Part shown: piece after piece, positions 1 through 56,408 of the stretch
How positions within the stretch are numbered: position 1 is the first letter of the stretch
Layout: each line of letters starts with the position of its first letter
Assembly (NCBI GenBank): GCA_040376695.1
Contig: JBEIQD010000004.1
Coordinates: 1-57,815, forward strand
Length of the DNA: 57,815 nucleotides
DNA from: Candidatus Nomurabacteria bacterium
Lineage (GTDB): Bacteria; Patescibacteriota; Minisyncoccia; Phycocordibacterales; UBA5272
Reading direction: 5' to 3'
Made by a program: the position numbers and the translations under genes
Notes under the pieces: generated by a model
What the model saw: the letters and a program-made list of their open reading frames with translations, nothing else
Database searches by the model: none
Told to the model about the DNA's origin: nothing

Positions 1-141
1 GTTCTTTTACGAGTTACTAATCGTCATGCTCATTGCAGTACCGGTTACTTTAGTTTTAGGAGTTTTAACCAATCTAGTTTGGGGAGACTCGTTATTTAGT
101 GATATGGGCGCTTTCTACTTCATTACAGCCGGGTCGCTTAA
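1..141. repeat. Terminal direct repeat copy 1 (identical to 57675..57815)
   Basis: nt 1-141 (gttcttttacgag...gggtcgcttaa) recur exactly as the last 141 nt of the window; implies a closed/circular contig with a 57,674 bp unit. Confidence 0.95.
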
Positions 142-188: not shown

Positions 189-248
189 ATGAGTGTCTTT
201 CTTTTATTCTCTGTGATGATGTTGTTTATATTGATAGCAGATGATTAA
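189..248 (+). CDS. 19-aa hydrophobic micro-ORF (MSVFLLFSVMMLFILIADD)
   Basis: AAGGAGG 8 nt upstream of ATG 189; last ORF before the terminator. Confidence 0.3.
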   Translation: MSVFLLFSVMMLFILIADD

Positions 249-455
249 GCCCTTAACGGGGCTTTTTTATTTGTCTATTAATAGTATATTTAATGTGCCG
301 TAGGCACGATAACCAAAGTATCAACTAAATAATCAAAAGGAATAAATTAAGGAAAGAATTTTAAAAGGAAAACAATTAAGAAAATAATGAGAAAGCAAAG
401 AATTTCAAAAGGGAGGAAGCAATCACGAAGTGATTATAATAAGGGTTAACCTCTT
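245..455 (-). ncRNA. Candidate CU-rich small RNA transcribed from the consensus promoter at 462..490
   Basis: No ORF or SD downstream of a perfect promoter; UUCG-capped hairpin (421..435); four UCC-rich motifs including GCUUCCUCCC. The 3' end is undefined (hairpins at 295..307 and 248..263). Confidence 0.3.
248..270 (+). terminator. Rho-independent terminator ending the plus-strand operon
   Basis: Hairpin AGCCC-ttaacg-GGGCT followed by TTTTTT. Confidence 0.7.
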
Positions 456-461
456 AAAACC

Positions 462-490
462 ATTATAACAATATATAAAAATCCTGTCAA
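462..490 (-). promoter_or_regulatory. Perfect sigma-A/sigma-70 consensus promoter (TTGACA-17 nt-TATAAT)
   Basis: Minus strand reads ttgacaggatttttatatattgttataat; -35 at 485..490, -10 at 462..467, 17-nt spacer counted. Confidence 0.65.
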
Positions 491-546
491 ATTATTCTGA
501 GAAAGCAATCTTTTAAATGTGTCTAACTTGTGACAGATTAGGTTAT

Positions 547-1037
547 ATGCACGAATGTGCGTTTAATAGCCCTTTAGAGGACGAGCAAGCCAAACAGGTA
601 TCATAGTATTACTTGCACGGTTACAAAGGCAGGAGCAAGCCTTTAAATGCACAGTTATATGCACGGTTACAGATAATTTACTCATGCACGGTTAAATGCG
701 AGTTAAATGGGGGTTAATGATGCACTGTTGGCTTTCTCGTTACGTCCGGGTTAAATGACGGGTTACAACGGGGTTACTTATGCACGGTTACACACAGCTT
801 AATGCCGGGTTACATAATTTGAGATTCTCAAAAAATGAAATTTTAAAAAATTGATATTAGAGATTTATCTACCATACCACGACGGACTCACCCCGCTTCC
901 AAAATCTGGTGGGAACTTTTTATAAGTAAGTAACTTAAAGTAACCCGCACATTAAAAGTAAGTATACTAATATAACATGGCAGTGGTCAGACAACCGTAC
1001 AACTGGGGTTACATCGGGGTTACATGCACGGTACAAC
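547..1037 (+). repeat. Directional iteron-like array (ATGCAC[G/A]GTTAC and (C)GGGGTTAC units) flanking an AT-rich segment at 815..870
   Basis: ATGCAC starts in this span at 547, 647, 659, 684, 720, 780, 1024 (further copies at 1130, 1175, 1208, 1252, 1442, 1735, 1758). GGTTAC/GGTTAA units are dense in 613..1022. Confidence 0.8.
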
Positions 1038-1847
1038 TACCACTAGCTAATAGATATACAACCATAGTAACCCGTCACTATAACACGATAGTAATAGCAC
1101 AATAGTATACAACTATAACAACACACCACATGCACACTATACCCATATAATACTAGGTATTATAGTACTATACCATGCACAGTATACCACCATACTATAC
1201 CTATATAATGCACAGTTGTGCGGGTAAACTATACCCCTATAATGATACTACATGCACCATACAACTACATACTATACCGCTATAACAACACTTATATATA
1301 TAAGTATAATACCCGGCTTACTCATAGTGCATTACTTACTAAAAGTACCTAGATAATCTAAAGTAAATCACTTACAAAAAGTAAGCGAATAACCAAACGA
1401 AAGTCACTTACAAATGGTAAGCGAATCACATAGAATAACCTATGCACATACCTATAGCTACTTACTTTAAGTACATAGCACATCCTTATATACCTACTTA
1501 CTAATAGTGAGCAGGCTCTCTTTCATAACGTACTTACTATTAGTACACAAGGGGTATTTGCAGTAACTTACTTACTTTTAATAAGTGTCGGGTATATGAA
1601 GTTCATAATGTACTATTAGTAAGTGACTTACTTTTAGTAACCCGACGACCGGAACTTTACTATTAGTAACCTACTTACTTTAAGTAACTGCATACGATAT
1701 ACAAAAAAGTGCATACTCATAAAGATGTATATTTATGCACTGAATTATTGGATGATTATGCACAAAAGTGTATATACATATTACTTCCAACAACACCGAA
1801 ATAATAGGCAATAACTAGGAGAAAGCAAGCCACTTACTAAAAGTAAC
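924..1847. repeat. About 13 dispersed copies of the palindrome TTACT-N3-AGTAA
   Basis: Examples: 1334..1348, 1459..1474, 1494..1509, 1531..1546, 1610..1624, 1625..1641, 1655..1670, 1671..1688, 1831..1847. Two 23-mers tcacttacaaaNNgtaagcgaat at 1368..1390 and 1404..1426. Confidence 0.8.
1130..1316. repeat. Seven ACTATACC units (GGTATAGT on the minus strand), several followed by TATAAT
   Basis: cactatacccatataat, tactatacca, cagtatacca, atactatacctatataat, aactatacccctataat, tactataccgctataac, agtataatacccgg. Confidence 0.7.
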
Positions 1848-2015
1848 GACGTCTATTTCATCGTTTTTAAGCCCTGCTTCTCACTGAGCCTTATCTTACT
1901 ATTCATTCAGAATTTGACACCTCTTAAACGGGCTAAAAACAGCCTTCTCGTACAAATTCGTCTCTTTTGAACCAGTGCATATTCTCGACCGAGATTAGAT
2001 TGCATAAACGGTGTT

Positions 2016-2079
2016 AGACGTCAGACTTCTAGTTTGGAGACATCCAGTTGAATAAGTAAGACGTCAGACCTCTAATTTG
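2016..2079 (+). repeat. Two 21-nt direct repeats agacgtcagacYtctaRtttg
   Basis: Copies at 2016..2036 and 2059..2079; they share the GTCAGAC core with sites at 3250, 3304 and 3431. Confidence 0.7.
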
Positions 2080-2082
2080 AAC

Positions 2083-2106
2083 AAAAAAAAGAGAGCTTTC
2101 GCTCTC
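2083..2106 (-). terminator. Rho-independent terminator ending the minus-strand gene series
   Basis: Minus strand: GAGAGC-gaaa-GCTCTC followed by TTTTTTTT. Confidence 0.75.
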
Positions 2107-2531: not shown

Positions 2532-2852
2532 TTAACGGTCTGATTCCTCTTTGCAACCAACCATATAGCCGTCGATTGACTTCCAGTTCATTCCATCCGA
2601 TGCCATTTTCAGGACTCTTTTCAATGTCGAACGTTTGACCTCTTTTTCATCACCATTGTTCGGATTTACCATTGCATCGCCGTTTGAACAAAACGAGCAT
2701 CCGGCTAGACCAAACCGCCAAAACACTTCCACAACGTCATCCTCATGCCAAAACGTATCGTGTGCCATTTCAAGGGTTTTCATTGGAATACGAGCCGATT
2801 TGAACGCTTTAGTAATAATTACCATTTCTTCCGGTGTTAGTTCGAGTTTCAT
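2532..2852 (-). CDS. hypothetical protein (106 aa)
   Basis: ATG 2852 preceded by ctaGGAGGaattaac; the track ORF extends to 2882. Confidence 0.6.
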   Translation of the reverse strand: MKLELTPEEMVIITKAFKSARIPMKTLEMAHDTFWHEDDVVEVFWRFGLAGCSFCSNGDAMVNPNNGDEKEVKRSTLKRVLKMASDGMNWKSIDGYMVGCKEESDR

Positions 2853-2933
2853 GTTAATTCCTCCTAGTTTTTGGTAGGTCACAAGATTTGGGCAGATTCC
2901 CAGAATTTGGGGAAAAGCTGGTTTTCTTGTGCC

Positions 2934-2953
2934 TGTACTTAATATATGCCCTG
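2934..2953 (-). promoter_or_regulatory. Variant of the conserved phage box (cagGGCATATATTAAGTACA)
   Basis: About 80 nt upstream of the 2852 start; matches the box consensus except 3-4 positions. Confidence 0.4.
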
Positions 2954-3037
2954 TGGGCTGAAATTAAAACCCCATATTCCAAAATAAATCAAGTGTCACA
3001 AAATGTTCACAATTAGATATTTATTTTAGTGAAACAC

Positions 3038-3066
3038 TTGACAAATCCGATGAAGTTTGATATTTG
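3038..3066 (+). promoter_or_regulatory. Sigma-A-like promoter (TTGACA-17-TATTTG with a TGn extension), no ORF downstream
   Basis: TTGACA at 3038..3043, tGaTATTTG at 3058..3066. Confidence 0.3.
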
Positions 3067-3131
3067 CGTGTGCGCTCGCACATTATTATAGGAAAGCATT
3101 TTCCCTTAACACAATTCGATAAATCCGTCAA

Positions 3132-3150
3132 GGGGTAATATATTGACATT
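3132..3150 (+). promoter_or_regulatory. Plus-oriented variant of the conserved box (GGGGTAATATATTGACATT)
   Basis: First 13 nt fit the box; no ORF downstream. Confidence 0.3.
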
Positions 3151-3341
3151 GGAATGTGAAATAAAGGGGTTTGAATCTTTTTTAGTTGCATGATACAAAC
3201 AACTGTTCACTAACACACTTCGATGATAAAGTCAAGATGTTTATAAGATGTCAGACCGGGTAAAGACATATACGAACAAAAAACCGAACATCTTTGGTAG
3301 GAGGTCTGACCTCTCTATACAAGCGCCAGTTTCGACGGCTT

Positions 3342-3406
3342 GTTATACCTGTATAACTTATTCTGAGTTATATTGATATAACGAATTGTCGTTATACTGA
3401 TATAAC
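3342..3406. promoter_or_regulatory. Three 16-bp palindromes GTTATA-N4-TATAAC (operator-like triplet)
   Basis: gttatacctgtataac 3342..3357, gttatattgatataac 3367..3382, gttatactgatataac 3391..3406; centre spacing 25 and 24 bp; flanked by AGGTCTGAC at 3302 and 3429. Confidence 0.6.
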
Positions 3407-3489
3407 TCTTTTTCATGTTTAGAGAACAGAGGTCTGACAACATACCACCAGTCTGCAATCACAAGAAAAAGGTATTTTCATATTGCTTT

Positions 3490-3740
3490 TCAATTGTCAG
3501 AATAGTGTCGATTTAAAGAATATTTAAATTGTCAGAATATTCTACAATGAAAGACAATTGAAAAAGTACCTTCTTTTTTTGTGGAAAAAAATAAAGCATT
3601 AAAAGCGATTAGCAAGTTTTATCCGGCGGCGTGACGACGACATGACGATGAACGAGTGAGAAGAAGTTGACGAGATGAGAAGAACGAGAGAGAAAGAGAG
3701 TGATGAGAAGAAAAGACGAGAAAGCAAGTAAAAGAGAGTA
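3490..3740. repeat. Non-coding module copy A, proximal blocks (TTGTCAGAATA boxes, TTTTTTTGTGGAAAA, GC-rich patch, polypurine tract)
   Basis: Block-wise similarity to 7010..7230 (ttgtcagaatagtgtc, tttttttgtggaaaa, gaagaagttga[c/g]gag); about 110-nt purine-rich run at 3630..3740. Confidence 0.7.
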
Positions 3741-3991
3741 AAGCTAAATGACTTTTTTGACTATAGAGCTATGAGAATGCTGTTTTAAGCTACAGTAGCC
3801 CCACCACTAATAGTAGGATAACCACCCCACTACAGAGAAGCTCTTAGAGGGCATATAAGAGAGATTTTAAGAGATTGCTTTCTCATTCTTTCAAGAAAAA
3901 GTCTGAAAAACTTTAGAAAAACCGGTTTAAAATCTTGATAAAAAGGGTAAAAATGTTGTAAGAATGTCTTGAAATTCTTTGAAAAACCATG

Positions 3992-4015
3992 AGAAAAACC
4001 CTCAAATTTTGAGGG
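3992..4015 (-). terminator. Rho-independent terminator following A-tract array A
   Basis: Minus strand: CCCTCAAA-a-TTTGAGGG followed by TTTTTC. Confidence 0.6.
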
Positions 4016-4084
4016 AAAATCTCTCTTATTTTGTCCGAATTTCATCGAAATAATAGGGAATATTTTCCGAATTATTTTGAGATT

Positions 4085-4240
4085 TTGGGCTGAATTTTCC
4101 AGTGAATTTCCGGTGAAATTTGGCTGAATTTTTTGCCGTATTTTTTTCGGATTTTTTTTGAACTTTTTTCTGCATTTTTTCTGAATTTTTTTTGTGCTTT
4201 TTTTCGAGTTTTTTCCACACTTTTTCTGCGATTTTTTTAA
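4085..4240. repeat. Phased T-tract (A-tract on the sense strand) array A
   Basis: 10 runs of >=5 T starting at 4129, 4141, 4152, 4164, 4175, 4186, 4198, 4209, 4221, 4232 (mean spacing about 11.4 bp); homologous to 7590..7810. Confidence 0.85.
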
Positions 4241-4416
4241 GAAGTAAGCGAGTGTGTTTTCTCAATTGTAACACCCTCCAAAGAGTTGATAAACTTGACC
4301 GCTTCTTTCTCAGTGTCATAGTGAGATTCAAATAATATTTTAGTAAACATCCGGCAACGGACTGTATAACCGTCTTTCTCATTGCCGATGATATAGACCT
4401 TGATTGATTTTCTCAT
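4237..4416 (-). CDS. hypothetical small protein (59 aa)
   Basis: GGAG SD, TAATG overlap with the upstream gene; non-repetitive sequence. Confidence 0.55.
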   Translation of the reverse strand: MRKSIKVYIIGNEKDGYTVRCRMFTKILFESHYDTEKEAVKFINSLEGVTIEKTHSLTS

Positions 4417-4842: not shown

Positions 4843-4862
4843 TGATAGTAGTATTTACCCCG
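4843..4862 (-). promoter_or_regulatory. Conserved phage box, exact 20-mer CGGGGTAAATACTACTATCA
   Basis: Identical 20-mer also at 17903..17922 (-) and 51573..51592 (+). Confidence 0.6.
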
Positions 4863-4886
4863 TACTATCAAGCTATAAACCGAAAA

Positions 4887-5522: not shown

Positions 5523-6026
5523 TTAGATAACCCCTTTCAGATTTGAGAAGATAGTTTCAATTGCTTCTATAGTATCATATTTCCCCTTGTTGTATGAACC
5601 TAAACACTTTTCCATAACTTTTTTTAGATTTAAGAAAGAAAGTTTTGAGATGTAACCATTATCCAATGCCCACCCGATTCCAATTTCCCAAGCTCTCATT
5701 TCATATTCGAAAGTGTTTTTAGCATACTTTCCGCCGTAAGCATTTACATCAGCGTGATAATTGAGAGCATCGTAAGCATGACCTAACTCATGTAACAGGA
5801 TATAAATGTAAATCCGGTTACCATCAAAGTTCTCGTATTTATTAGGGTCAAGTCTGATTCCTTTGATAGAGTTGTTGGTGCGATTGATTAAGATACACCC
5901 TGCGCCGACTTTACCGGGAATACTTTCGATTATCAACGGAATGTTAACATCTTGTTGTTTGTTGAATCTTTCAACCATTTCTACTACAGTTTGTCCGATG
6001 GTTTTAGTACGAGTTTGGAAATACAT
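5523..6026 (-). CDS. putative zinc metallopeptidase (HExxH), paralog 1
   Basis: LLHELGHAYD followed by EMRAWEIG; same pattern as the 6101..6694 product. Confidence 0.5.
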   Translation of the reverse strand: MYFQTRTKTIGQTVVEMVERFNKQQDVNIPLIIESIPGKVGAGCILINRTNNSIKGIRLDPNKYENFDGNRIYIYILLHELGHAYDALNYHADVNAYGGKYAKNTFEYEMRAWEIGIGWALDNGYISKLSFLNLKKVMEKCLGSYNKGKYDTIEAIETIFSNLKGVI

Positions 6027-6060: not shown

Positions 6061-6081
6061 CTGATAGTTATATATTCCCGA
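6061..6081 (-). promoter_or_regulatory. Conserved box variant (tCGGGAATATATAACTATCAG)
   Basis: 19-mer ctgatagttatatattccc shared with 6731..6749; 34 nt upstream of the start. Confidence 0.55.
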
Positions 6082-6100
6082 ACTATCAGACTATAAACGC

Positions 6101-6694: not shown

Positions 6695-6730
6695 TTCAAC
6701 CACCCTTTCCGGTGTGACTGTGGTATTACT

Positions 6731-6752
6731 CTGATAGTTATATATTCCCCGG
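6731..6752 (-). promoter_or_regulatory. Conserved box variant (CCGGGGAATATATAACTATCAG)
   Basis: 36 nt upstream of the 6694 start. Confidence 0.55.
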
Positions 6753-7009
6753 TAAACAGGATATAAACGCTTTTAAACAAAAAACTTTAAAAACTTTTCG
6801 CTTCCTTTAAATAGCGCACATAAGCGCACACGCTATACCACGTTGAAACCGGTCTTAAACCTGTTTTGTTTAAAAAATAAATATTTTGGGTAAATTCATA
6901 ATAAGACGTTTAAAAACCAGAAAGCTGAGATGCAATGAGACGGCTAGTTGTCCGACTCCATACATCTCGATGCAACTGAGAGCGTTTAAGATATAGTAAA
7001 ATAGTATGT

Positions 7010-7230
7010 AAGTTGTCAGAATAGTGTCTAAATCTGAAACAATTTAATATTTTTAAATTTTCCTTCTTTTCAGAAAATTGAAAATGAAGGTCATTTTTTT
7101 GTGGAAAATTTTCAAATCCTTTAAAGGCTTTCAAAAAGTTTTATGGGGGCGCACGGCGACACGACACAAAAGCTGTGAAGAAGTTGAGAAGCGAGAGAAA
7201 GCTGAACACACAAAAGAAGCAAGCTCACTG
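7010..7230. repeat. Non-coding module copy B, proximal blocks
   Basis: Shares ttgtcagaatagtgtc, tttttttgtggaaaa, a GC-rich patch and gaagaagttgagaagcgagagaaag with 3490..3740. Confidence 0.7.
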
Positions 7231-8290: not shown

Positions 8291-8651
8291 TACCTCCTAA
8301 TAAATATTTTAGTGTGTGGAACTCCTTCTTACTAATCATTACCCCGTAATCATTAACTGTAAACTTGTAGCATACAACCTCTCTATCCAACCGGGCTGAG
8401 AAACGAATCATGCTCTTGGCTACTGCAAAAATTCCTTTATCAGTAAAGCAAACTTCGATTTCTTCTAGCTCTCTGACTGCGATAAAATGGTGTTCACCGG
8501 CTGATGTGATACAGTGAATCATCGTGGTTCTTGGTGTCGCATCAGTGTTTACAAATGTACCAACGACATATAAGAGAGTGCCATATGGTAGTTTGGGGTA
8601 ACCGGTGTTAACCATCACCCCTGTCATCTCTACATAATTTCTAATTTTCAT
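8250..8651 (-). CDS. hypothetical protein (133 aa)
   Basis: ATG 8651 after GAGGGGTGAGGAA; the track ORF extends to 8666. Confidence 0.6.
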   Translation of the reverse strand: MKIRNYVEMTGVMVNTGYPKLPYGTLLYVVGTFVNTDATPRTTMIHCITSAGEHHFIAVRELEEIEVCFTDKGIFAVAKSMIRFSARLDREVVCYKFTVNDYGVMISKKEFHTLKYLLGGNEDETITNHERTN

Positions 8652-9541: not shown

Positions 9542-9561
9542 CCTTACTGGTATTTACCCCG
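9542..9561 (-). promoter_or_regulatory. Conserved box variant (CGGGGTAAATACCAGTAAGG)
   Basis: Its 3' end abuts the SD of the 9530 start. Confidence 0.5.
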
Positions 9562-9572
9562 ATTAGAGGATG

Positions 9573-10037
9573 TTAAACCTTGAAGTATTGTTTAAGCATC
9601 CATACAATCGCTGTCGGGTCTTTTCTTAGAATGTCTATCTCGTCCTTTAAGAACATACAGAATGGAATGTCCGGATGGTACTTCTTAAATAGTCTCGTTC
9701 GCTTCTTAGAGCGGTCATCGAACCACCCTTTCACTTCGAGATAGCCACCGTACTCCGGGATGTAGAAGTCTGGCAAGTAGGATTCTTTCTCCTTATAGAA
9801 CTTGAAGCGCTTGGGTTCATATTCGTATTCGATACCGGCTTCAAAAAGTGCATCAGCTACGATTACTTCCCAAGTCGAGCGGTAAGTATGACCATCACGT
9901 TCGTGATATAACTTAACACTCTTTCGCTTTCTCGTCTTTCTCTTGCCTTTGACTTCTTCTGCCATGGCATCGTGTACATTCGTAAAATCTTTATCGTTAC
10001 ATCTCCATTTCTTCGTCTGGTAGTTGTAATAAATCAA
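9573..10037 (-). CDS. PD-(D/E)XK-type endonuclease-like protein
   Basis: Motif LPDFYIP...GGYLEVKG (D...E-x-K); TTG start with GAGGTG SD. Confidence 0.45.
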   Translation of the reverse strand: MIYYNYQTKKWRCNDKDFTNVHDAMAEEVKGKRKTRKRKSVKLYHERDGHTYRSTWEVIVADALFEAGIEYEYEPKRFKFYKEKESYLPDFYIPEYGGYLEVKGWFDDRSKKRTRLFKKYHPDIPFCMFLKDEIDILRKDPTAIVWMLKQYFKV

Positions 10038-10707
10038 GCTCCATCACCTCGGTGTAGGCTTCTCTAAAAGCCTTTTTAGACTTGGAGAGGTAGACGGGAA
10101 AACTCTTTTCTCCAATTCCTAGTTCATCAATAATTTCTTTCTCCCCTTTCCCTTCAAAGAAGTGCATCGTGATTACTTGTCGTTCACGCTTGGTTAATTT
10201 GTCGAGAGCGAGATAGAAACGAATGTCTGTAATCTCGTCTTCTCCTTCAAATACATCGTCAATATGTGTTGACTTGTGCTTATCAGCCGCTTCAAGCGAG
10301 ATGACAACCGTTCTATCTTCAACGTAATTGTTCATGTGGTTGAGAGTAGCATAACGGAACTGCATTTGTAGATAGCCGCTAAACAGCATATCTTTCGGGT
10401 CATCAGAGATATGATAATCGTTAACTGCTTTGGTAAAGACTTCGATTAAATGAAGTCTGAACTCACTCATATCTGTGAATTTACTTTTCTTCATGGTAGA
10501 AAAGAATAGTGGAATCATCATGTCGATTAAGTCCAAGAAAGCATTCTCGTCTCCTGTCTCTCGATAACGTCGGATTAACTTATTCTGTTGTACCCAACTT
10601 TCATGTCGGTTATCAAAATCACGGAAACGGAATAAATCTGGTGGTGGGCTGTCGCCACTCCAATTGTTTGCCATACCCATCAAAAAATCTAATCCGTTCA
10701 TAGTCAT
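9997..10707 (-). CDS. phage-encoded sigma-70-family (ECF-like) factor
   Basis: Region-2-like HLIEVFTKAVNDY...FSGYLQMQFRYATLNHM and region-4 HTH LTKRERQVITMHFFEGKGEKEIIDELGI...SKSKKAFRE. Confidence 0.7.
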   Translation of the reverse strand: MTMNGLDFLMGMANNWSGDSPPPDLFRFRDFDNRHESWVQQNKLIRRYRETGDENAFLDLIDMMIPLFFSTMKKSKFTDMSEFRLHLIEVFTKAVNDYHISDDPKDMLFSGYLQMQFRYATLNHMNNYVEDRTVVISLEAADKHKSTHIDDVFEGEDEITDIRFYLALDKLTKRERQVITMHFFEGKGEKEIIDELGIGEKSFPVYLSKSKKAFREAYTEVMELDLLQLPDEEMEM

Positions 10708-14941: not shown

Positions 14942-14962
14942 TGACATAGTAATATATACCCG
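14942..14962 (-). promoter_or_regulatory. Conserved box (aCGGGTATATATTACTATGTCA) upstream of dnaE
   Basis: 16 nt upstream of ATG 14925, directly followed by the AAAGGAG SD. Confidence 0.55.
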
Positions 14963-14978
14963 TTTTATCAACAAACTA

Positions 14979-15013
14979 AACCCCTTCTATACCACCAAGG
15001 TACAAAAGGGGTT
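14979..15013 (-). terminator. Hairpin/terminator after the 15020 gene
   Basis: AACCCCTT ... AAGGGGTT stem with a 19-nt loop; T-rich tail is weak. Confidence 0.4.
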
Positions 15014-15019: not shown

Positions 15020-15520
15020 TTATAGTGAATATTTAGCCCGTAAAGCCTGTGAAACTGTCCGGGTCGGAACACCGTGCTTCTTCATCCGGCGACGGATTGT
15101 AGCTTCATCAACTCCTAGGAGAGAGCCAACTTCTCGTAATGATAGGTTAGCCGTGTAGTAAGCGTCGATGATAAACGGGATGTCGTCATTCAGTGCTTGC
15201 TCGTTAATTGTCAGCGTGAAGTTTGTGTTGTCCCGTGGTCGATGTTCTGTTGGGATAGTATACGAACTGAGAGTGCCGATTAAATCATCTAGGTCATCAT
15301 CGAATACTGCAACTGCTTCAAAACTTGGCACACGCTCTAAGTCTGAAAAGAGAACGAACTGTTTTTTACCACTTTCATTTTCATATTGGTAGTATGTTTC
15401 GGTTCGTAGTGTTACAGTTTGACCTGTCGCTGTTACAATTTCACCTCTGGTAAATGAGTGGTGAAAATCTTCGTTGCCAACTACCTCAAACACATCACCT
15501 TTTAAAACTTTCTCGCTCAT
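15020..15520 (-). CDS. DNA-binding protein: N-terminal small beta-barrel-like domain plus C-terminal HTH
   Basis: C-terminus LSLREVGSLLGVDEATIRRRMKKHGVPTR (HTH); N-terminus KGDVFEVVG...GEIVTATG. Confidence 0.5.
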   Translation of the reverse strand: MSEKVLKGDVFEVVGNEDFHHSFTRGEIVTATGQTVTLRTETYYQYENESGKKQFVLFSDLERVPSFEAVAVFDDDLDDLIGTLSSYTIPTEHRPRDNTNFTLTINEQALNDDIPFIIDAYYTANLSLREVGSLLGVDEATIRRRMKKHGVPTRTVSQALRAKYSL

Positions 15521-15930
15521 TCGTCATCTTCCTCTCTTTGATTGAAGCGTTCAGCATTGATTTGTTCGGACAACTTCTCGTCCTTATACATCATTACCCG
15601 TCCGTTAGGTTGTTTAAACATCTGGTAGATAATCCAACCTTGCTTGATGATACGGACTGCATAGATGCACCGGGTAAGCCCGGTAACATCCATGTAATCG
15701 CATAACCGTCCATAACTTTTGTCGATGATGTGTTGGTCAAACCCTTTCAAGCGGTCAACTTTAATCGCTGTGACATTGCCATCTACGATGTGCAAGAGGT
15801 CTACGAACTCATTGCTTGCTCTGACTTGGTGAATCTTACCTCCAAAGAGGTATTCAAAGTAAGGTTTAAGCTCGTAGATACTTGGCGTTTTACTGCGACG
15901 ACCTTGCTTGTTCTGTCTGTCGGGTCGCAT
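15517..15930 (-). CDS. hypothetical protein (137 aa)
   Basis: ORF with 4-nt overlaps on both sides. Confidence 0.55.
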   Translation of the reverse strand: MRPDRQNKQGRRSKTPSIYELKPYFEYLFGGKIHQVRASNEFVDLLHIVDGNVTAIKVDRLKGFDQHIIDKSYGRLCDYMDVTGLTRCIYAVRIIKQGWIIYQMFKQPNGRVMMYKDEKLSEQINAERFNQREEDDE

Positions 15931-17901: not shown

Positions 17902-17922
17902 GTGATAGTAGTATTTACCCCG
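17902..17922 (-). promoter_or_regulatory. Conserved box, exact copy (CGGGGTAAATACTACTATCAC)
   Basis: 11 nt upstream of the SD and start of the 17890 gene. Confidence 0.6.
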
Positions 17923-17942
17923 TGTGAGAAATCTTAAACCTT

Positions 17943-19381: not shown

Positions 19382-19401
19382 CCTTAGTAGTATATACCCA
19401 A
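19382..19401 (-). promoter_or_regulatory. Conserved box (TTGGGTATATACTACTAAGG)
   Basis: Immediately downstream of the nrdA terminator and abutting the next SD. Confidence 0.5.
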
Positions 19402-19417
19402 AAAGAGAAGGGATAAA
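19389..19417 (-). terminator. Rho-independent terminator after nrdA
   Basis: Minus strand: AGAGAGGGG-tttat-CCCTTCTCT followed by TTTTT. Confidence 0.6.
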
Positions 19418-19429
19418 CCCCTCTCTCGT

Positions 19430-25684: not shown

Positions 25685-25705
25685 GTGATAATAATATATA
25701 CCCCG
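25685..25705 (-). promoter_or_regulatory. Conserved box (CGGGGTATATATTATTATCAC)
   Basis: 20 nt upstream of ATG 25664. Confidence 0.55.
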
Positions 25706-25757
25706 ATAGCTTCAAGGTTAAACATTTCTGTTTTACCGGAAACAAAAAGGGATACTA

Positions 25758-25777
25758 CTCTTATAGTAATACCCCTG
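25758..25777 (-). promoter_or_regulatory. Shortened box variant (CAGGGGTATTACTATAAGAG)
   Basis: Tandem with 25685..25705, just after the holin stop. Confidence 0.35.
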
Positions 25778-25787
25778 TGTCAGATTC

Positions 25788-25970
25788 TTAAACCTTTGGT
25801 TCGTCGTCCTTGCGTTCACTATCAAAGATACCGAGAGCTGTAAGCCCTAGACCTAAGTTAGTGAGCAAGACACCGGCGAAATCTAAATGCTCCGGTAAGA
25901 ATTGACCTACGACTGCGAGTGCAATACCGCTAATCGCTACCCATACTTTAAAGTTTAATTTTTTTCTCAT
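25788..25970 (-). CDS. holin (60 aa, two TM segments, charged C-terminus)
   Basis: VWVAISGIALAVVGQF / AGVLLTNLGLGLTALGIF then SERKDDEPKV; adjacent to the lysins. Confidence 0.6.
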   Translation of the reverse strand: MRKKLNFKVWVAISGIALAVVGQFLPEHLDFAGVLLTNLGLGLTALGIFDSERKDDEPKV

Positions 25971-26029: not shown

Positions 26030-26512
26030 TTACAATAGGTCGTATACGGATTCAATCGTTCCTGCATACTTATCGTTCATAGCCCATCGGTTATTCAAGT
26101 CTTTCCATGCCGGGGCAATTCCCCGTTTAACATACTTGAATCGTGGGTCGAGGATGCTGTCTCCTTCTGGTAAAGGAAGGGTAGAAGCGTATGCGAACAA
26201 GTGTTGAATGTGGGCTGTAACCCCTTCTTCAATTGTTCTGAACTCATTTCCTTTAAGTCCATTGCTAGTAACTCCCATACCACAATAGTTATGTTGGTCT
26301 GGCGTAACTGCTGAACCACGGAATGTAAACCATCCTGTTTCTACGATAGCTTGTGCAAAAGCGACATCACCTCTTACTCCATATCGTTTACCGATACGGA
26401 TATAAGCTCCTGCAATATCTTCTATACGTTTAGCATCGGGGTTAACGTTTAGAACCTGTGCAGAAAGTTGAAGGTGAGTTTTTACACTCACCCCCATAAT
26501 CTTGTTTATCAT
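26030..26512 (-). CDS. endolysin, N-acetylglucosaminidase (LytD/glucosaminidase-domain) type
   Basis: VAFAQAIVETGWF...NYCGMGV motif characteristic of the glucosaminidase domain. Confidence 0.7.
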   Translation of the reverse strand: MINKIMGVSVKTHLQLSAQVLNVNPDAKRIEDIAGAYIRIGKRYGVRGDVAFAQAIVETGWFTFRGSAVTPDQHNYCGMGVTSNGLKGNEFRTIEEGVTAHIQHLFAYASTLPLPEGDSILDPRFKYVKRGIAPAWKDLNNRWAMNDKYAGTIESVYDLL

Positions 26513-27243
26513 AAGTCTACCCGGTCAATCCGGATGTCCTTACCTTCATGTTTGTCTACAAGTTCTTCAACGTTCTTGTAGTCAGAGAAAGCCCCGATTT
26601 GCTTCTCATCAATGAAGACACGATAAATCGTTTTCTTTGTCTCAACCGGTGGCTTAACCGGTGTTGGTGCTTTGATTGCTTCTCCGATAATTGCTTCTGC
26701 AATAACTTTGCCGACTCCATCTGCTTTCAATTTCTTGTAAGCGTCTGTGTCTGCTTTGCTATCTACGAAACAAATCTCTACGAGAATGCCATAAGCTGTA
26801 CGTTCTACCCATTGAATAGGAACACCTTTACCAAAGCGATTGTCTGAATCCTTAACCCCACGGTTAGGAAGACCTAGTGCTTTTGCAAGTTGGTCAACGA
26901 TTCGTTTTGCACGAACTTTATCTTTCTCCCGTGCTTGACGGAATGAAATAAAGACTTCAACACCAACTGCTTGTGCCATTGTACGAACTGCATTGAAATG
27001 CAATTGAATGTCACACTCTGCATCTGGATGTTTCAAGTGTTTGTTAACCGAGTTTGAAATAATTTGTTGAGCTGTTCGACCGATGTTATCGGTACAGTCA
27101 GCGAAATCCCAACCACCTTGCTTGATATATTTTTCGACTGCATCTAAAACGATGCGATTCTCGACTTCTTCCTTGATATAACCTCTAGCGCCCGGAATGA
27201 TTAAGTTATGACCTGCTGAACCTGCTAATTTTTTCTTAGCCAT
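26509..27243 (-). CDS. endolysin, N-acetylmuramoyl-L-alanine amidase (Amidase_3-like) with a SPOR-like C-terminus
   Basis: AGHNLIIPGARGYIKEEVENR... amidase-3-like N-terminus; C-terminal IYRVFIDEKQIGAFSDYKNVEELV resembles the SPOR motif. Confidence 0.65.
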   Translation of the reverse strand: MAKKKLAGSAGHNLIIPGARGYIKEEVENRIVLDAVEKYIKQGGWDFADCTDNIGRTAQQIISNSVNKHLKHPDAECDIQLHFNAVRTMAQAVGVEVFISFRQAREKDKVRAKRIVDQLAKALGLPNRGVKDSDNRFGKGVPIQWVERTAYGILVEICFVDSKADTDAYKKLKADGVGKVIAEAIIGEAIKAPTPVKPPVETKKTIYRVFIDEKQIGAFSDYKNVEELVDKHEGKDIRIDRVDL

Positions 27244-27280
27244 TTGTATCACCTCCTTCAATCCCAAGGTAGTAGTTAGA

Positions 27281-27634
27281 TTAATCCTTGTCTTTAAATC
27301 GGACTCGCTCATTAATACGGTCTACATCCTGCTCGATTCGTTCGAGACTATCGCTAAGTTTGTTTAATGAGCTTGCGATTTCCTTTACTTGTTCAAGAAT
27401 AATCGCTTCTCGTCGTGCTGAACCTTCCTTCTCCTCTGCTAGCTGTTCTCTCAAATAGGCTTCCCTACGTTCGGCTGACTCTCTAGCTAGACGGGCATCT
27501 TCTTTCCTTTCGACTTCCATCTGGCTAAATCTGTCAGCAACGTATTTGATAGCAATGAAGAAGAAGGTGATGAACAAGCCCATGAAGACATTCTCAACAC
27601 CTAACAATTTCAGTATAGCAACAAATTCTGCCAT
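27281..27634 (-). CDS. BhlA/UviB-like holin-like membrane protein (N-terminal TM plus coiled coil)
   Basis: FMGLFITFFFIAIKYV TM followed by a long charged coiled coil; position before the lysins. Confidence 0.4.
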   Translation of the reverse strand: MAEFVAILKLLGVENVFMGLFITFFFIAIKYVADRFSQMEVERKEDARLARESAERREAYLREQLAEEKEGSARREAIILEQVKEIASSLNKLSDSLERIEQDVDRINERVRFKDKD

Positions 27635-43461: not shown

Positions 43462-43490
43462 ATGATAACAAGCTGTTTACTTGCTTTCAA
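43462..43490 (-). promoter_or_regulatory. Sigma-A-like promoter for the morphogenesis operon (TTGAAA-17-TGtTATCAT)
   Basis: Minus strand ttgaaagcaagtaaacagcttgttatcat; extended -10 TG. Confidence 0.5.
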
Positions 43491-43536: not shown

Positions 43537-43565
43537 TTGACAGTATTTATAGATATATATATAAT
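43537..43565 (+). promoter_or_regulatory. Perfect sigma-A consensus promoter (TTGACA-17-TATAAT)
   Basis: ttgacagtatttatagatatatatataat; spacer counted as 17 nt; points at the dCMP deaminase gene. Confidence 0.65.
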
Positions 43566-43738
43566 GGGGTTAAGGGGGTTATAACCGGTTAAGTAACTTG
43601 TTAAGTAACAGGTTTAGATACATAATAATATAGGGTATGTTATAACTAGTTAATAAAAAAGAATATAAAGAATAATATAAAAGAGAATAGTTTAATAATA
43701 ATTTAATAAGGGTAATAGATAGTAAAGGAGGAGAAAGC

Positions 43739-44422: not shown

Positions 44423-44767
44423 ATGAGTAAGCAAGTTGAGATTGGATATGTTAACACGAACTATTTTGGAAAAAAGTTTCAAGAGGGTCAGATGGTATAC
44501 TGCTTCTTCCAAGACTATGACACGTTCTACCGGGTTGAAACTCTTGACGGTTGGGAATCAGATTATCTTGCTCTTGAAGAAATTACACTGGAACGTGAGC
44601 TAGCCGCTTTTAAGCCGGTTGGTAAAACGTTTATTGATTTTAATGGAACCGAGTATATCATTATGGAAGACTTAGGATTGTCAGTATATGCCGATACCGG
44701 TACGAAGATTATGCTGTTCAGCAAGTTAGAGATTATGTTCTGGAAAGAAAAAAAGAAGAAGCGTTAA
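44423..44767 (+). CDS. hypothetical protein (114 aa)
   Basis: GAGGAGG SD; its stop overlaps the converging MuF stop (TTAA). Confidence 0.55.
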   Translation: MSKQVEIGYVNTNYFGKKFQEGQMVYCFFQDYDTFYRVETLDGWESDYLALEEITLERELAAFKPVGKTFIDFNGTEYIIMEDLGLSVYADTGTKIMLFSKLEIMFWKEKKKKR

Positions 44768-45480
44768 GCCCCTTCTTCCTCTTGCGAAACTGTATTAGCG
44801 ATAATCAAGCCCTCGACTAGTACAGCAAACAGTAAGTCAATGAATCCATTGTAGTTAGGATTGAAGTCTGGTTCTGCCGGTGCTTCTTGTGACTCTGTTT
44901 CCTCGACATCTTCCTCGACTGGAATCCACAATGAACGACAATTGAAGTGAGCCGGAATCAAGTAAGGAATACGAGGGTCATCTTTCAAATAGATGTTGCC
45001 ATCTCTACTCTTACAGATTTCGGTTGTTTTATTATCTAGTACAGCGCTGTATTCTAACTTCTGTACAGTGTCATCTTGCAAGTAGTAAGCGAGAGAGCCA
45101 AGGGCGTAACCCCGTGTTGATTCGGTTCTTACAATGGTTCTAGCGTGGTTCATCGAGTAGACCTTATCGACGTATTCATTCAAGCTCTTGCCGATGTCCT
45201 GTGCTGATTTACCTTGCTGTAGCCCGTCTGCAACGATTTGTTTTACTGCGAAAGCATTTGATTCATCGTAGAACTTACTCAGCTCGAAAGCATACGTCCG
45301 TACTACACGGTCAACCTCTGCATCTACTTTAGGGTCATACTTGGCGAACAAGTCCTTGTCATAGATGTTTTTGAAGTCTTCATCAAAATCAGATGTTAAA
45401 CTATCTTTAGAGACGACTGCCCCATGCAAGATTGAACTTAGAATCATTTTTTGAATAATCTTTCCACTCTCCTTTGTCAT
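44764..45480 (-). CDS. MuF/SPP1 gp7-like minor head (head morphogenesis) protein; frame open upstream to 45669 without any start codon
   Basis: TTEICKSRDGNIY...PAHFNCRSLWIP motif of the Phage_Mu_F family. 63 additional in-frame sense codons upstream lack ATG/GTG/TTG. Confidence 0.7.
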   Translation of the reverse strand: MTKESGKIIQKMILSSILHGAVVSKDSLTSDFDEDFKNIYDKDLFAKYDPKVDAEVDRVVRTYAFELSKFYDESNAFAVKQIVADGLQQGKSAQDIGKSLNEYVDKVYSMNHARTIVRTESTRGYALGSLAYYLQDDTVQKLEYSAVLDNKTTEICKSRDGNIYLKDDPRIPYLIPAHFNCRSLWIPVEEDVEETESQEAPAEPDFNPNYNGFIDLLFAVLVEGLIIANTVSQEEEGA

Positions 45481-45647
45481 CGGGATAATAAAGTCGCTAA
45501 AGTCAATTTCTTCCTTCTCTAACAGACTAGCAATCCGTTCCTTAGTGAGCCGTACCTTTTTACCGGTGACGGCTTCACTTTGTTTAAGGAACTCATCTTC
45601 TAGTCCATCGAATACCTGTTCCGACGCTTTAGCGTATGTTGAGAAGG

Positions 45648-47129
45648 TTACAACTTTAAATCGTCGTCCTCAGCTAGATTGACAGAGCGCTCACGTTCTA
45701 CTGATGCTCGTTCATCCTTTGTCTGACCTGTACCCTTTGGTTTAGAAGGTTTGCCTACCTTTGGAGCATTAGAGCCTAATGAAGATGAACCTGTTGGTCT
45801 AGTCTGCCCACCTGTAGCACCTTCATCAGCGCCTTTAGTATAGTAGTCAGAAAGTGCTTCTGCTTGGGTAATCTCAGCTTCAACGAGTCGGTCAAGAGTG
45901 TCCTTAACTTCTTCTGATGCAGGCTCGAATCCAAGAGCTTCACGAATCCATGGTTCAGTAGGAAGCAATGCACCTGCTGTGATTTGAGAAATGATAGTGT
46001 CGTTAAGAACTTTCATGTCTTTATCAACGAGCGGGCTGAATGTGATTTTCGGATATTCGTCCGGGTTAGGGAAGTTATAGTCGATTAAGTCTCTGATGAC
46101 TTGTTCTTCTAGCATAGCTTTAATGTCTCGTTGTAAAGCGTTGAGCTTCATCATAAATACGTCCATCTGGTTACTAGACAAGGCATATGAGCCGGCAATC
46201 GCTTTACTTGATGCTACAAGCATTGAAGGAATGTTCATGCTCTCATAGATAGAGCGAGAGTGATATTCTAGTACAGCTACCCAGTCAACGTTCTGCTGTG
46301 GTTGAATCGCTGTAATGGTATCTTCACCGCTAATAGCAAGCGATGTCATAGCGTTCAGTTTGGAAAGCAGTTGCTTCATCTTACCAGTGTTCTTAGCATC
46401 TTGTACTTGTCCGATAATCAACGGCGTACCGTATCGTTCATAAGCGACGTTAGCGAACTTCAAGATTTTATCCTTGATGTACCAGTTCTTGTAACAAGCC
46501 TTTAACTCTGATTCACCGTACATATTGCCAAAGCGTTTGTTGTTGACGAACCAGATGATTTTCTGTTTCGGCATCTCAACATGATAAGCACCAATACGCT
46601 GTGTGATATGGACGACGTTACCATATGAGTCAGTCCGGATTGTTACTGTTGTCGGGTCTAACGTTTTAAACTTTTTCAGCATAATCTTACTGCCGAATTG
46701 TTTTGTCTGGCGACGTTCGTAAACTTTTTCAGTAGCGGAATAACCGTACTCTAAGCAGGTCATCATCTCCATTAGATAGTCCTCGATATTACCTTCAAGG
46801 TCGTCGAAGTTCTTTTTAATGAAATCTGCTAACTCCTTGTTACTTTCGTCGTCTACTGTGATTTGAAATCCTCGACTCAGTACTGACAGCTTTAGGACGT
46901 TCAACGCTGACTTGATTACGGCATCTTTCATCATCTTGTCATAGACGGAAAGGTCGAACTCGTCAAAGTTTAAATCGTCGTAAATGTCAATTCCATAGTC
47001 TTTGTGTGGGTCGGAATATGCCGTTAGTTCTAACGACAAGTCACGTAACTCCGCTTCAAGCGCACGTTTAGCTTGTTGCTCTGCGCTCTCAACATCTCTG
47101 TCTTTTCCGAATGGGAATTTAAAAGCCAT
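45648..47129 (-). CDS. portal protein
   Basis: 493 aa, adjacent to the MuF-like gene, acidic/charged C-terminus; size and context typical. Confidence 0.7.
   Translation of the reverse strand: MAFKFPFGKDRDVESAEQQAKRALEAELRDLSLELTAYSDPHKDYGIDIYDDLNFDEFDLSVYDKMMKDAVIKSALNVLKLSVLSRGFQITVDDESNKELADFIKKNFDDLEGNIEDYLMEMMTCLEYGYSATEKVYERRQTKQFGSKIMLKKFKTLDPTTVTIRTDSYGNVVHITQRIGAYHVEMPKQKIIWFVNNKRFGNMYGESELKACYKNWYIKDKILKFANVAYERYGTPLIIGQVQDAKNTGKMKQLLSKLNAMTSLAISGEDTITAIQPQQNVDWVAVLEYHSRSIYESMNIPSMLVASSKAIAGSYALSSNQMDVFMMKLNALQRDIKAMLEEQVIRDLIDYNFPNPDEYPKITFSPLVDKDMKVLNDTIISQITAGALLPTEPWIREALGFEPASEEVKDTLDRLVEAEITQAEALSDYYTKGADEGATGGQTRPTGSSSLGSNAPKVGKPSKPKGTGQTKDERASVERERSVNLAEDDDLKL
45654..45660 (-). 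promoter_or_regulatory. Candidate -1 slippery heptamer T_TTA_AAG at the end of the portal gene
   Basis: Sense strand gaT TTA AAG ttg taa; the -1 frame is the MuF frame. Confidence 0.5.
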
Positions 47130-47167
47130 TTACCTTGCACCTCCATGTGGTTTACATTTCTTTGGTT

Positions 47168-47191
47168 CGGGGTAAGTATTAGTATACCCTC
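47168..47191. promoter_or_regulatory. Near-palindromic double box (CGGGGTAAGTATTAGTATACCCTC) in the divergent region
   Basis: Reads as a box in both orientations (GGGGTAAGTATTAGTATA / GAGGGTATACTAATACTTA). Confidence 0.5.
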
Positions 47192-47196
47192 ACACC

Positions 47197-47218
47197 AAGG
47201 TATAAAATTAGTTAAGGA
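47197..47218 (+). promoter_or_regulatory. Box variant (AAGGTATAAAATTAGTTAAGGA) abutting the SD
   Basis: Directly upstream of the 47231 start. Confidence 0.4.
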
Positions 47219-50962: not shown

Positions 50963-50978
50963 GATGTTTAGCCCTTTT
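50955..50978 (+). terminator. Rho-independent terminator overlapping the terL stop
   Basis: GGGCTAA-gatgt-TTAGCCC followed by TTTTT. Confidence 0.65.
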
Positions 50979-50982
50979 TCTT

Positions 50983-51004
50983 TTGGGTATATATTAGTAT
51001 ACGA
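50983..51004 (+). promoter_or_regulatory. Conserved box (TTGGGTATATATTAGTATACGA)
   Basis: 14 nt upstream of ATG 51019, followed by GAGGAGG. Confidence 0.55.
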
Positions 51005-51561: not shown

Positions 51562-51572
51562 TATTCTGAGAA

Positions 51573-51593
51573 CGGGGTAAATACTACTATCAC
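51573..51593 (+). promoter_or_regulatory. Conserved box, exact copy (CGGGGTAAATACTACTATCAC)
   Basis: 18 nt upstream of ATG 51612. Confidence 0.6.
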
Positions 51594-52822: not shown

Positions 52823-52823
52823 C

Positions 52824-52844
52824 CCGGGTATAACTATTATAAGG
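52824..52844 (+). promoter_or_regulatory. Conserved box (CCGGGTATAACTATTATAAGG) fused to the SD
   Basis: Its 3' end runs into AAGGAGGTG, 12 nt before ATG 52857. Confidence 0.55.
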
Positions 52845-54049: not shown

Positions 54050-54058
54050 CCCCGGCAA

Positions 54059-56386: not shown

Positions 56387-56408
56387 CGAGGGTATACATA
56401 CTATAAGG
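56387..56408 (+). promoter_or_regulatory. Conserved box (CGAGGGTATACATACTATAAGG) fused to the SD
   Basis: Runs into AAGGAGGTG, 10 nt before ATG 56419. Confidence 0.55.

Follow-up and report, generated by a model that had tools for sequence, protein, structure and literature searches.

Phage sigma factors that serve a promoter class of their own are textbook knowledge from SPO1 and T4. Among host factors, the general-stress sigma SigB of Bacillus, Staphylococcus and Listeria reads promoters with a -35 of GTTTAA or GTTTWW and a -10 of GGGTAT or GGGWAW, separated by a hexamer spacer of 13-14 bp. In B. subtilis only six promoters genome-wide match the SigB consensus exactly (PMC9847131). The S. 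aureus consensus is GTTTWW, about 14 bp and GGGWAW, with GGGWAW numbered -15 to -10 (PMC11156646). In the SigB open complex the GGG at -15 to -13 is read as duplex by the last sigma2 helix and the first sigma3 helix, the A at -11 is flipped out and there is no -7 pocket; this duplex-reading geometry accounts for the short spacer (PMC11156646). Here we describe a stretch of 57,815 nucleotides (contig JBEIQD010000004.1, called the window throughout) that is the complete genome of a virulent siphophage with a Bacillus-like host. It carries 23 copies of a promoter-like box with the same two blocks at the same spacing, and an open reading frame (ORF) at 9997..10707 on the minus strand whose 236-aa product is a very divergent sigma-70-family protein. 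In the literature that we searched, no phage genome is described as carrying SigB-type promoters.

The box and its regulon

The box is bipartite and reads GTTTA-N14/15-GGG(T/A)A, then wAtAyTAcTAt. A preliminary description of this DNA had taken it for a 20-nt element without a -35, comparable to a single-element phage promoter. That view does not survive printing of the flanks of the sites it listed: GTTTA, within a -35 block reading (G/T)GTTTA, is invariant 14-15 nt upstream of GGGTA. With two blocks at near-fixed spacing and a short hexamer spacer of 13-14 bp, the box is built like a classical bipartite promoter of an alternative sigma.

The pattern GTTTA-N13-16-GGG[AT]A is found at 23 sites, compared with 1.25 +/- 1.1 expected from a first-order Markov simulation. 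The gap between GTTTA and GGGTA is 14 nt at 11 sites, 15 nt at another 11 and 16 nt at one. When all 5-mer pairs were enumerated without bias, GTTTA/GGGTA was the top non-homopolymer dyad (19 occurrences against 0.3 expected). A position weight matrix, trained on the same sites that it scores, gave 22 sites of at least 18.4 bits, the maximum in ten simulated genomes being 15.9. Conservation continues past GGGTA, with A at -9, A at -7 and T at -2.

These counts refine what had been claimed earlier. The estimate of about 20 copies is right for the bipartite core (23 sites) but not for the strict 20-mer, which has five matches with up to three mismatches; three identical 20-mers do lie exactly where they had been placed. 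Sixteen of the 19 positions listed earlier are full sites (4843, 6061, 6731, 9542, 14942, 17902, 19382, 25685, 25758, 47168, 50983, 51573, 52824, 54059, 56387 and 43630). The other three fall short of full sites: 2934 is degenerate (14.6 bits, within the null range), 3132 is a -10-like half only, and 47197 is no plus-strand site but the -10 of a degenerate minus-strand site facing the portal gene. Seven further sites were found at 3239+, 3925+, 5605-, 6868+, 8364-, 15619- and 43690+.

All 20 boxes in gene-dense DNA face the next gene downstream. The statement that the box always points at the next gene thus holds for 20 of 23, since three plus-strand sites aim into gene-poor DNA against the flow of the leftward genes. 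Apart from these three, 17 boxes are intergenic and on the sense strand and three lie within the last codons of the preceding gene. From the end of GGGWA to the next start codon the distance is 16-59 nt at most intergenic boxes, about 100 nt for the upstream members of two tandem pairs (25793 and 43612), and 49-74 nt for the three intragenic boxes. The units served are those for replication, nucleotide metabolism, the terminase and runs of small genes, at a density of about 4 boxes per 10 kb of phage genome; the 17-kb head-tail-lysis operon has no box. Several boxes form cassettes with intrinsic terminators: in three the -35 sits in the loop or arm of the hairpin, and in a fourth the -10 sits in the stem (Table 1). 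A box built into a terminator hairpin would insulate each unit from the unit upstream. At 47150..47206 the -10 of a plus-strand box overlaps the degenerate minus-strand site (TTTTA-N13-GGGTATA) that faces the portal gene, forming the near-palindrome GGGTAAGTATTAGTATACCC; the arrangement resembles a divergent promoter pair, and a copy of the late motif described below is included in it.

Relatives of this phage, known as metagenomic contigs in which the sigma is 54-60% identical, keep boxes at orthologous places. The footprint covers the left arm (L001-L003 and L006-L008), the right arm (L009 and L016) and the divergent region (L015-L018). At orthologous boxes GTTTA and GGGTA are unchanged while the sequence of the spacer differs, and every left-arm contig with this sigma has boxes too. 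The positional-orthologue sigmas of the Bacillus phages Andromeda (gp44) and DZ1 are 31-34% identical over region 4 only, and neither genome has a site within one mismatch of the box consensus. Among the 2.9 million IMG/VR contigs scanned, the single member of this clade was the only contig with several boxes. A 5.8-kb contig with a sigma of 26% identity (P0010/L019) has two pattern matches, both intragenic; one of them encodes a conserved F-x5-GV peptide, and we set both aside as too few. In its statistics, placement, orientation and conservation the box behaves as a promoter-like element that defines a phage regulon, as the preliminary description had proposed; the regulon is that of the non-structural genes.

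Against the SigB consensus GTTTAA-N13-15-GGGTAT, 17 boxes lie within one mismatch and two are exact. They differ from a SigB regulon in being on a lytic phage genome, in preceding replication and nucleotide-metabolism genes, and in the conservation past the -10 (wAtAyTAcTAt). SigB has no -7 pocket and so would not, by itself, need that conservation (PMC11156646). SigB numbering would put the 20-mer at about -16 to +3, so that transcription would start at its 3' edge, in keeping with the earlier suggestion of a start inside or at the edge of the conserved block (PMC11156646). Where the box is fused to the Shine-Dalgarno sequence (19418, 52807, 54042 and 56370), the 5' end of the mRNA would nearly coincide with the Shine-Dalgarno.

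Two other promoter classes are present. Upstream of the dCMP deaminase gene lies a sigma-A promoter that is kept as TTGACA-17/18-TA(T/C)AAT in all relatives that cover it (L015-L018), and it is a candidate early promoter. Three late units, in the window and in relatives (L015, L016, L017 and L009), carry instead the motif ATACCTTG-N4/5-(G/T)TGA(A/G)(A/G)G, whose N4 in the relatives reads TCGG at each of the three. The motif constitutes a third class, specific to late genes. The copy before the head protease gene overlaps a host-type promoter at 43462..43490 on the minus strand, whose -10, TATCAT, is not kept in relatives. Both of the host-type promoters that had been pointed out exist, and only the rightward one is conserved. 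Reading the late motif as a -35/-10 pair was tried and rejected: there is no convincing second block, and only three sites are available. An invariant CATACGGTTTGCA stands directly ahead of the Shine-Dalgarno of the protease gene. A second putative regulator is encoded at 15020..15520 on the minus strand (166 aa). Its N-terminal domain is SH3-like, its C-terminal part is an invariant helix-turn-helix weakly like sigma region 4, and it occupies the position of Andromeda gp40 (PMC9658697). It is a candidate late activator or co-factor.

The sigma-like protein and candidate readers of the boxes

The 236-aa ORF had been credited with segments like sigma regions 2 and 4. For region 4 this is borne out by Pfam (Sigma70_r4_2, 33.3 bits against a cut-off of 25.7; Sigma70_r4, 24.5 against 24.1), and the best matches among PDB sequences are region 4 of WhiG, SigF, SigB and FliA. 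Region 2 is supported indirectly. TIGR02937 aligns residues 62-216 at 35.1 bits (E = 9e-9), below its cut-off. A profile search of 1.84 billion representatives gave many collinear full-length matches to ECF-sized proteins of 175-200 aa, and those tested carry Sigma70_r2 and r4. In the AlphaFold model, helices occupy residues 34-127, residues 128-160 are disordered, and region 4 (162-224) is formed by four helices. Over the whole length the model's best fold match in the PDB is the S. aureus SigB open complex (8x6g), followed by ECF sigmas, WhiG and SigH, and the best viral matches (BFVD) are SigF/SigG-like phage sigmas. Alignment, remote profiles and predicted fold together point to a sigma2 domain at about residues 34-127. 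No Sigma70_r3 match was found with Pfam, and the model leaves about 35 mostly disordered residues (128-160) between sigma2 and sigma4.

The family is tiny, with seven homologues in 5.8 billion proteins, two representatives below 1e-30, and one gene context shared by all. Invariant within it are the helix-turn-helix of sigma4, the end of sigma2 (H124, N126, Y128, E130, D131 and R132) and an acidic C-terminal tail. The tail, ELDLLQL(S/P)DEEME(L/M), follows region 4 at residues 223-236 (9997..10038) and is invariant in all homologues; flap or anti-sigma interaction and autoinhibition are possible roles for it. The recognition helix of sigma4 reads EKSFPVYLSK where SigB and SigF have SQMHVSR. Models of known subfamilies fit poorly: TIGR02980 (SigB/F/G) scores 24.4 bits against a cut-off of 234.35, on region 4 only; the ArpU-type model TIGR01637 scores 19.9 bits (E 6.5e-4, cut-off 43.1); and the Xpf-like NF005385 scores 18.1 bits (E 1.7e-3, cut-off 136). 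PHROG matches are weak and limited to region 4. Two kinships had been put up for comparison in the preliminary description. For the ECF groups the two-domain architecture fits and TIGR02937 stays below its cut-off of 42.9; for SPO1, tblastn against 50,697 phage records found DZ1 only and neither gp28 nor gp34. Scanning GTDB genomes with the sigma gave only unrelated region-4 matches, and scanning IMG/VR gave none. No anti-sigma gene was recognised beside the sigma gene, whose neighbours encode DUF1064 resolvase-like and endonuclease I-like resolvase proteins.

We put the chances at about even that this phage sigma directs the host core polymerase to the boxes. As a minimal sigma made of sigma2, a linker and sigma4, it would displace the host sigma on the core enzyme and guide the polymerase to the approximately 20 bipartite promoters. 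By analogy with SigB, GGG would be read as duplex at -15 to -13 and the A at -11 flipped out, and initiation would fall on the 3' edge of the 20-mer and give very short leaders, often opening at the Shine-Dalgarno. The sigma gene has as its presumed own promoter the box in front of the dnaE operon, and the circuit would therefore be a positive feedback loop. The first sigma transcripts would most plausibly come from host SigB holoenzyme, terminator read-through or weak use of the boxes by sigma-A; ignition by host SigB or by read-through would solve the bootstrapping problem. The head, tail and lysis genes would be under separate control through the ATACCTTG...TGA motif, with the SH3-like/helix-turn-helix protein as a possible regulator there. 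Consistent with a phage-encoded reader, the invariant sigma4 helix-turn-helix and sigma2 end parallel the invariant DNA blocks, the GGG of SigB promoters being read where sigma2 ends and the next domain begins (PMC11156646). In addition, sigma and boxes co-occur strictly in the clade, and boxes are absent where the sigma has diverged. Such co-occurrence suggests, and does not establish, that this sigma reads this box.

A number of observations weigh against a phage-encoded reader. Firmicute siphophage proteins of the sigma-like kind (ArpU, RinA and Xpf) usually activate few late promoters, and a separate late motif is present in this genome. The sigma gene lies behind a terminator and a box and has no sigma-A promoter, which means that a box-reading activity must precede the sigma. 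The boxes coincide with the host SigB consensus in each block and in the distance between the blocks (PMC9847131). The phage sigma is without sigma3, which in SigB helps to read GGG (PMC11156646), and since its recognition helix is unlike that of SigB and SigF, a shared specificity would be convergent. Region 2 has no Pfam Sigma70_r2 match, residues 31-143 searched alone against PDB sequences gave only a spurious TPR match, and the AlphaFold model is of moderate confidence (pLDDT 67.5).

Because the sigma gene is box-driven, its recognition helix differs, and a second motif and a second DNA-binding protein exist, host SigB is a serious alternative reader, although we think it rather unlikely to be the true one. 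Here SigB, or a host sigma of SigB specificity, would read the boxes and the phage sigma would switch on the late genes through ATACCTTG...TGA. SigB could be available through infection stress, or could be freed from its anti-sigma by the 65-aa and 114-aa products of the sigma-A operon. Part of its case comes from the promoters themselves: 17 are within one mismatch and two are exact, the whole B. subtilis genome having six exact ones (PMC9847131), and a spacer of about 14 bp is the structural hallmark of SigB, which uses sigma2 and sigma3 together on duplex DNA (PMC11156646), sigma3 being the domain that the phage sigma lacks. A sigma gene that is driven by a box and has no sigma-A promoter would fit a cascade from host sigma to phage sigma to late genes, and the distinct conserved motif at three late units and the weak family matches of the phage sigma to ArpU and Xpf-type late activators point the same way. 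However, SigB is sequestered in unstressed growing cells, so that dependence of at least 20 essential promoters on it would be risky, and the literature searched has no report of a lytic phage that does so. Pfam and PHROG scans of about 40 phage ORFs found no STAS, RsbV-like or RsbW-like protein. The hosts of Andromeda and DZ1 have SigB, yet both phages are without boxes. The conservation downstream of the -10 is not something that SigB requires (PMC11156646), and the late motif, an uninterrupted stretch of 15-27 nt in which no second block is evident, resembles the site of an activator more than the promoter of a sigma.

It is improbable, in our judgement, that the boxes are read by a phage-remodelled sigma-A holoenzyme, in the manner of sigma appropriation by T4 MotA/AsiA, with the sigma-like ORF acting elsewhere. 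A phage protein such as the SH3-like/helix-turn-helix product of 15020..15520 would bind GTTTA, and sigma-A would use TAwAtA or wAtAyT as its -10. GTTTAN-N16/17-TAWATA does have sigma-A spacing, the bases past GGG resemble TATAAT at 4 of 6 positions, and the genome does encode this second protein with an invariant helix-turn-helix; its gene, however, is itself box-driven. The invariant bases are GTTTA and GGG rather than the sigma-A-critical A at -11 and T at -7, and the would-be -7 is mostly A. Matches to sigma-A at 9 of 12 positions overlap few boxes (25721..25693, 25715..25688 and 8363..8335), most boxes fail the sigma-A scan, and sigma-A-like matches in the window total no more than in shuffled sequence. 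With only three or four boxes overlapping such matches, we rejected the plain sigma-A promoter as the main reading of the box. A role in RNA processing, an alternative that the preliminary description had itself raised, or as some other RNA- or DNA-level signal unconnected with initiation, seems to us very unlikely. If an upstream promoter were in use, its transcript would include ACTACTATCA, from the 3' part of the box, and several boxes adjoin terminator hairpins, but many boxes come directly after intrinsic terminators, so that little upstream RNA would arrive. Invariant blocks around a fixed-length spacer of variable sequence are a signature of protein-DNA (sigma) recognition and not of RNA structure or cleavage, and no Rfam family matches.

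Somewhat short of an even chance, in our estimate, is the broader proposition that the phage has adopted the general-stress promoter code of its host, either run directly by SigB or through a sigma3-less sigma that converged on SigB specificity. In the convergent version host SigB would ignite the positive feedback loop and the phage sigma would amplify it, presumably beyond the reach of the anti-sigma RsbW. Either version, if true, would couple infection transcriptionally to the host stress response, and the phage sigma could also turn on the host SigB regulon. Should SigB itself read the boxes, this would be the first lytic phage, in the literature searched, with its main programme on a host stress sigma, and infection success would be tied to host physiology. 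If the phage sigma reads them, SigB-type -10 recognition (duplex GGG, short spacer) would be achievable without sigma3, and the pair would offer an orthogonal sigma and promoter for Bacillus engineering.

Genome layout and coordinates of the features

Positions 1..141 of the window are identical to 57675..57815, which indicates a closed circular assembly of 57,674 bp of unique sequence (about 57.7 kb; GC about 41%). A plus-strand ORF spans this junction. No tRNAs and no Rfam families were found in the window. Bacillus siphophages such as the Andromeda group, DZ1 and 019DV002 have TerL proteins with about 43% identity to the one encoded here; since megablast of 6 kb against the 50,697 phage records gave no match, there is no close cultured relative.

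The gene layout was drawn from PHROG and Pfam annotation together with synteny with relatives. The late block runs on the minus strand from 43430 to 26030 and contains the head protease, the major capsid protein (MCP), tail genes including the tape-measure protein, and the endolysin. Past a terminator, the replication arm continues on the same strand from 25.7 to 2.1 kb with an SSB-like protein, DnaB, primase, the large and small subunits of ribonucleotide reductase (RNR), the SH3-like/helix-turn-helix protein, DnaE, a PD-(D/E)XK nuclease, the DUF1064 resolvase, the sigma-like ORF, the endonuclease I-like resolvase, a dNMP kinase and unknowns. The plus-strand arm starts at 43.7 kb and runs to the terminator at 247..264, encoding dCMP deaminase, thymidylate synthase, a 244-aa protein, TerL, dihydrofolate reductase (DHFR), MazG and about 25 small genes; the portal and minor head protein genes (47129..44764) lie within this right arm on the minus strand. 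Promoters and boxes are collected in Table 1.

Table 1. Boxes, sigma-A promoters and late-motif copies in the window, with the contigs of relatives that keep each site (SD, Shine-Dalgarno sequence)
Feature	Position	Strand	Context	Kept in
Box	14944..14981	-	Before dnaE - PD-(D/E)XK nuclease - DUF1064 - sigma - resolvase operon; fused to intrinsic terminator 15013..14979, -35 in hairpin loop/arm	L001, L002
Box, exact GTTTAA-N14-GGGTAT	25686..25723	-	First promoter of replication arm (104-aa, 116-aa and SSB-like genes)	
Box-like, exact GTTTAA-N13-GGGTAT	25757..25793	-	-10 in stem of late-operon terminator 25776..25748; function ambiguous	
Box	19382..19418	-	Before 55-aa, NrdH-like and RNR small-subunit genes; -35 in terminator loop 19423..19408	L001, L002
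Box, identical 20-mer	17903..17939	-	Before 75-aa and 408-aa genes	L001, L002
Intragenic box	15582..15619	-	74 nt before SH3-like/helix-turn-helix gene	L001, L002
Box	9542..9578	-	Before 103-aa and dNMP kinase genes; spacer sequence variable	L001-L003, L006-L008
Intragenic box	8327..8364	-	49 nt before 170-aa gene	L001-L003, L006-L008
Box, GGGAA variant	6732..6768	-	Before 197-aa gene	L003
Box, GGGAA variant	6062..6098	-	Before 167-aa gene	L001, L003
Weak intragenic box, GGGAA variant	5568..5605	-	Before 112-aa gene; 13.8 bits, within null range	
Box, identical 20-mer	4843..4880	-	Before 130-aa gene (phrog_586)	
Box, 16-nt spacer	43612..43650	+	Between sigma-A promoter and dCMP deaminase gene	L015-L018
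Box	43690..43727	+	24 nt from dCMP deaminase start codon	L016-L018
Box	47150..47187	+	Before 138-aa gene, thymidylate synthase, 244-aa gene and TerL	L009, L016
Box	50966..51002	+	Before DHFR gene; -35 inside terminator hairpin 50955..50975	L009, L016
Box, identical 20-mer	51556..51592	+	Before run of 69-88-aa genes	L009, L016
Box fused to SD	52807..52843	+	Before 94-aa and MazG-like genes	L009
Box fused to SD	54042..54078	+	Before small-gene run	L009
Box fused to SD	56370..56407	+	Before last small-gene run, across assembly junction to terminator 247..264	L009
Box	6868..6905	+	Against leftward genes, into gene-free gap 6695..7224	L001, L003
Box	3925..3962	+	Gene-poor zone, against leftward genes	L001 (16292, minus strand)
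Box, 25.4 bits	3239..3275	+	Gene-poor zone, against leftward genes; no obvious ORF downstream	
Sigma-A promoter TTGACA-17-TATAAT	43537..43565	+	Before dCMP deaminase, 65-aa and 114-aa genes; two boxes follow; candidate early promoter	L015-L018
Perfect TG-extended sigma-A promoter TTGACA-17-TATAAT	490..462	-	Transcript of ~200 nt without ORF	
Late motif ATACCTTGGTTTTGAAAGCAAGTAAA	43476..43502	-	Upstream of head protease - MCP - tail - lysis operon	
Late-motif copy ATACCTTGGTGTGA	47190..47203	-	Upstream of portal gene (45648..47129)	
Late-motif copy GATACCTTGGAAGTGAAAGCAAGTCAA	39464..39490	-	Within 61-aa ORF, ~75 nt before tail-tube gene	

Several further features of the genome were noted. The transcript from the TG-extended promoter at 490 would extend to 247, reaching the bidirectional terminator at 247..264, and includes a stretch of CTTCCTCCC. 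Between the two convergent gene arms lies a region of about 1.8 kb (265..2090) with no ORF longer than 50 aa. It is dense at 600-1900 in short direct and inverted repeats (about ten copies of TACTTACTwwwAGTAAC, four of ATGCACGGTTACA and three of ACTATACCCATATAAT), and may be an origin of replication or a region for packaging. Inverted repeats of 20 nt connect 498-517 with 3866-3885. The zone 2850..4050 around the boxes at 3239 and 3925 is without convincing ORFs. Inside the minus-strand ORF 4026..4382, T-tracts recur in phase every 11 nt for about 12 turns (4096..4236), which suggests intrinsically bent DNA. At 26030..27312 on the minus strand, two adjoining, overlapping ORFs of 267 and 160 aa each match endolysin families and may form a two-part or split lysin.

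The gap at 6695..7224, downstream of the plus-strand box at 6868, has homologues in two relatives (L001:13520-13775 and L003:4440-4690, both minus strand) with DNA that is 88% identical; identity between the sigma proteins, the only proteins that were compared for these contigs, is about 57-59%. RNAalifold on three sequences only gave a closed structure of about 90 nt at -20 kcal/mol with one compensatory pair. The gap is a candidate for a box-driven small RNA. In DZ1 (L004), which has no box, sigma-A-like promoters and a recurrent TGGTATGAC element lie upstream of at least eight early and middle genes, and GACTGGTAAA upstream of two packaging-region genes.

Comparison with known systems

The proposed circuit has a precedent in SPO1, where gp28 (middle) and gp33/gp34 (late) redirect host core polymerase to many bipartite phage promoters. 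The SPO1 proteins, however, have no detectable sequence similarity to the present sigma and their promoter consensus is different; moreover, gene 28 is an early gene transcribed by sigma-A, whereas here the sigma gene lies behind a box. The SigF/SigG-like sigmas of the Bacillus phages Eldridge, SP10, Bcp1 and Wip4 are related to host alternative sigmas and able to act on host regulons (PMC9429907), and sigmas of this type are the best structural matches in BFVD. They are clear homologues with sigma3; the protein described here has no sigma3, falls at 24 bits against the SigBFG cut-off of 234 and has another recognition helix.

The gene order is shared with Andromedavirus (the B. pumilus phages Andromeda, Bolokhovo and Novomoskovsk) and DZ1, which have the same succession of helicase, primase, further genes, regulator, DnaE, PD-(D/E)XK nuclease, resolvase and sigma. 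In Andromedavirus gp44 is annotated as a sigma and gp40 as a region-4-like factor (PMC9658697). Unlike the present clade, these phages have a sigma that is similar in region 4 only and no GTTTA/GGGTA boxes, and the paper that annotates the Andromedavirus factors reports no cognate promoters (PMC9658697). ECF sigmas (group 4) are alike in their sigma2-sigma4 architecture, their size and their place in an operon behind a presumed promoter of their own. They differ in that the TIGR02937 cut-off is missed here and no adjacent anti-sigma gene is recognisable, and ECF promoters are of the AAC...CGT type, which the box is not, its spacer being about 3 bp shorter. ArpU, RinA and Xpf are comparable as small sigma-like phage proteins, with family matches that are weak and below cut-off, but they act at one or a few late promoters, whereas the boxes are many and absent from the head-tail-lysis operon.

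Against this background the present phages are unusual in combining an orphan clade of ECF-sized sigmas, a promoter class indistinguishable from the SigB consensus and, apparently, no sigma-A entry for the sigma gene. Their promoters fall into three cleanly distinct classes, which makes the temporal programme of the group directly testable.

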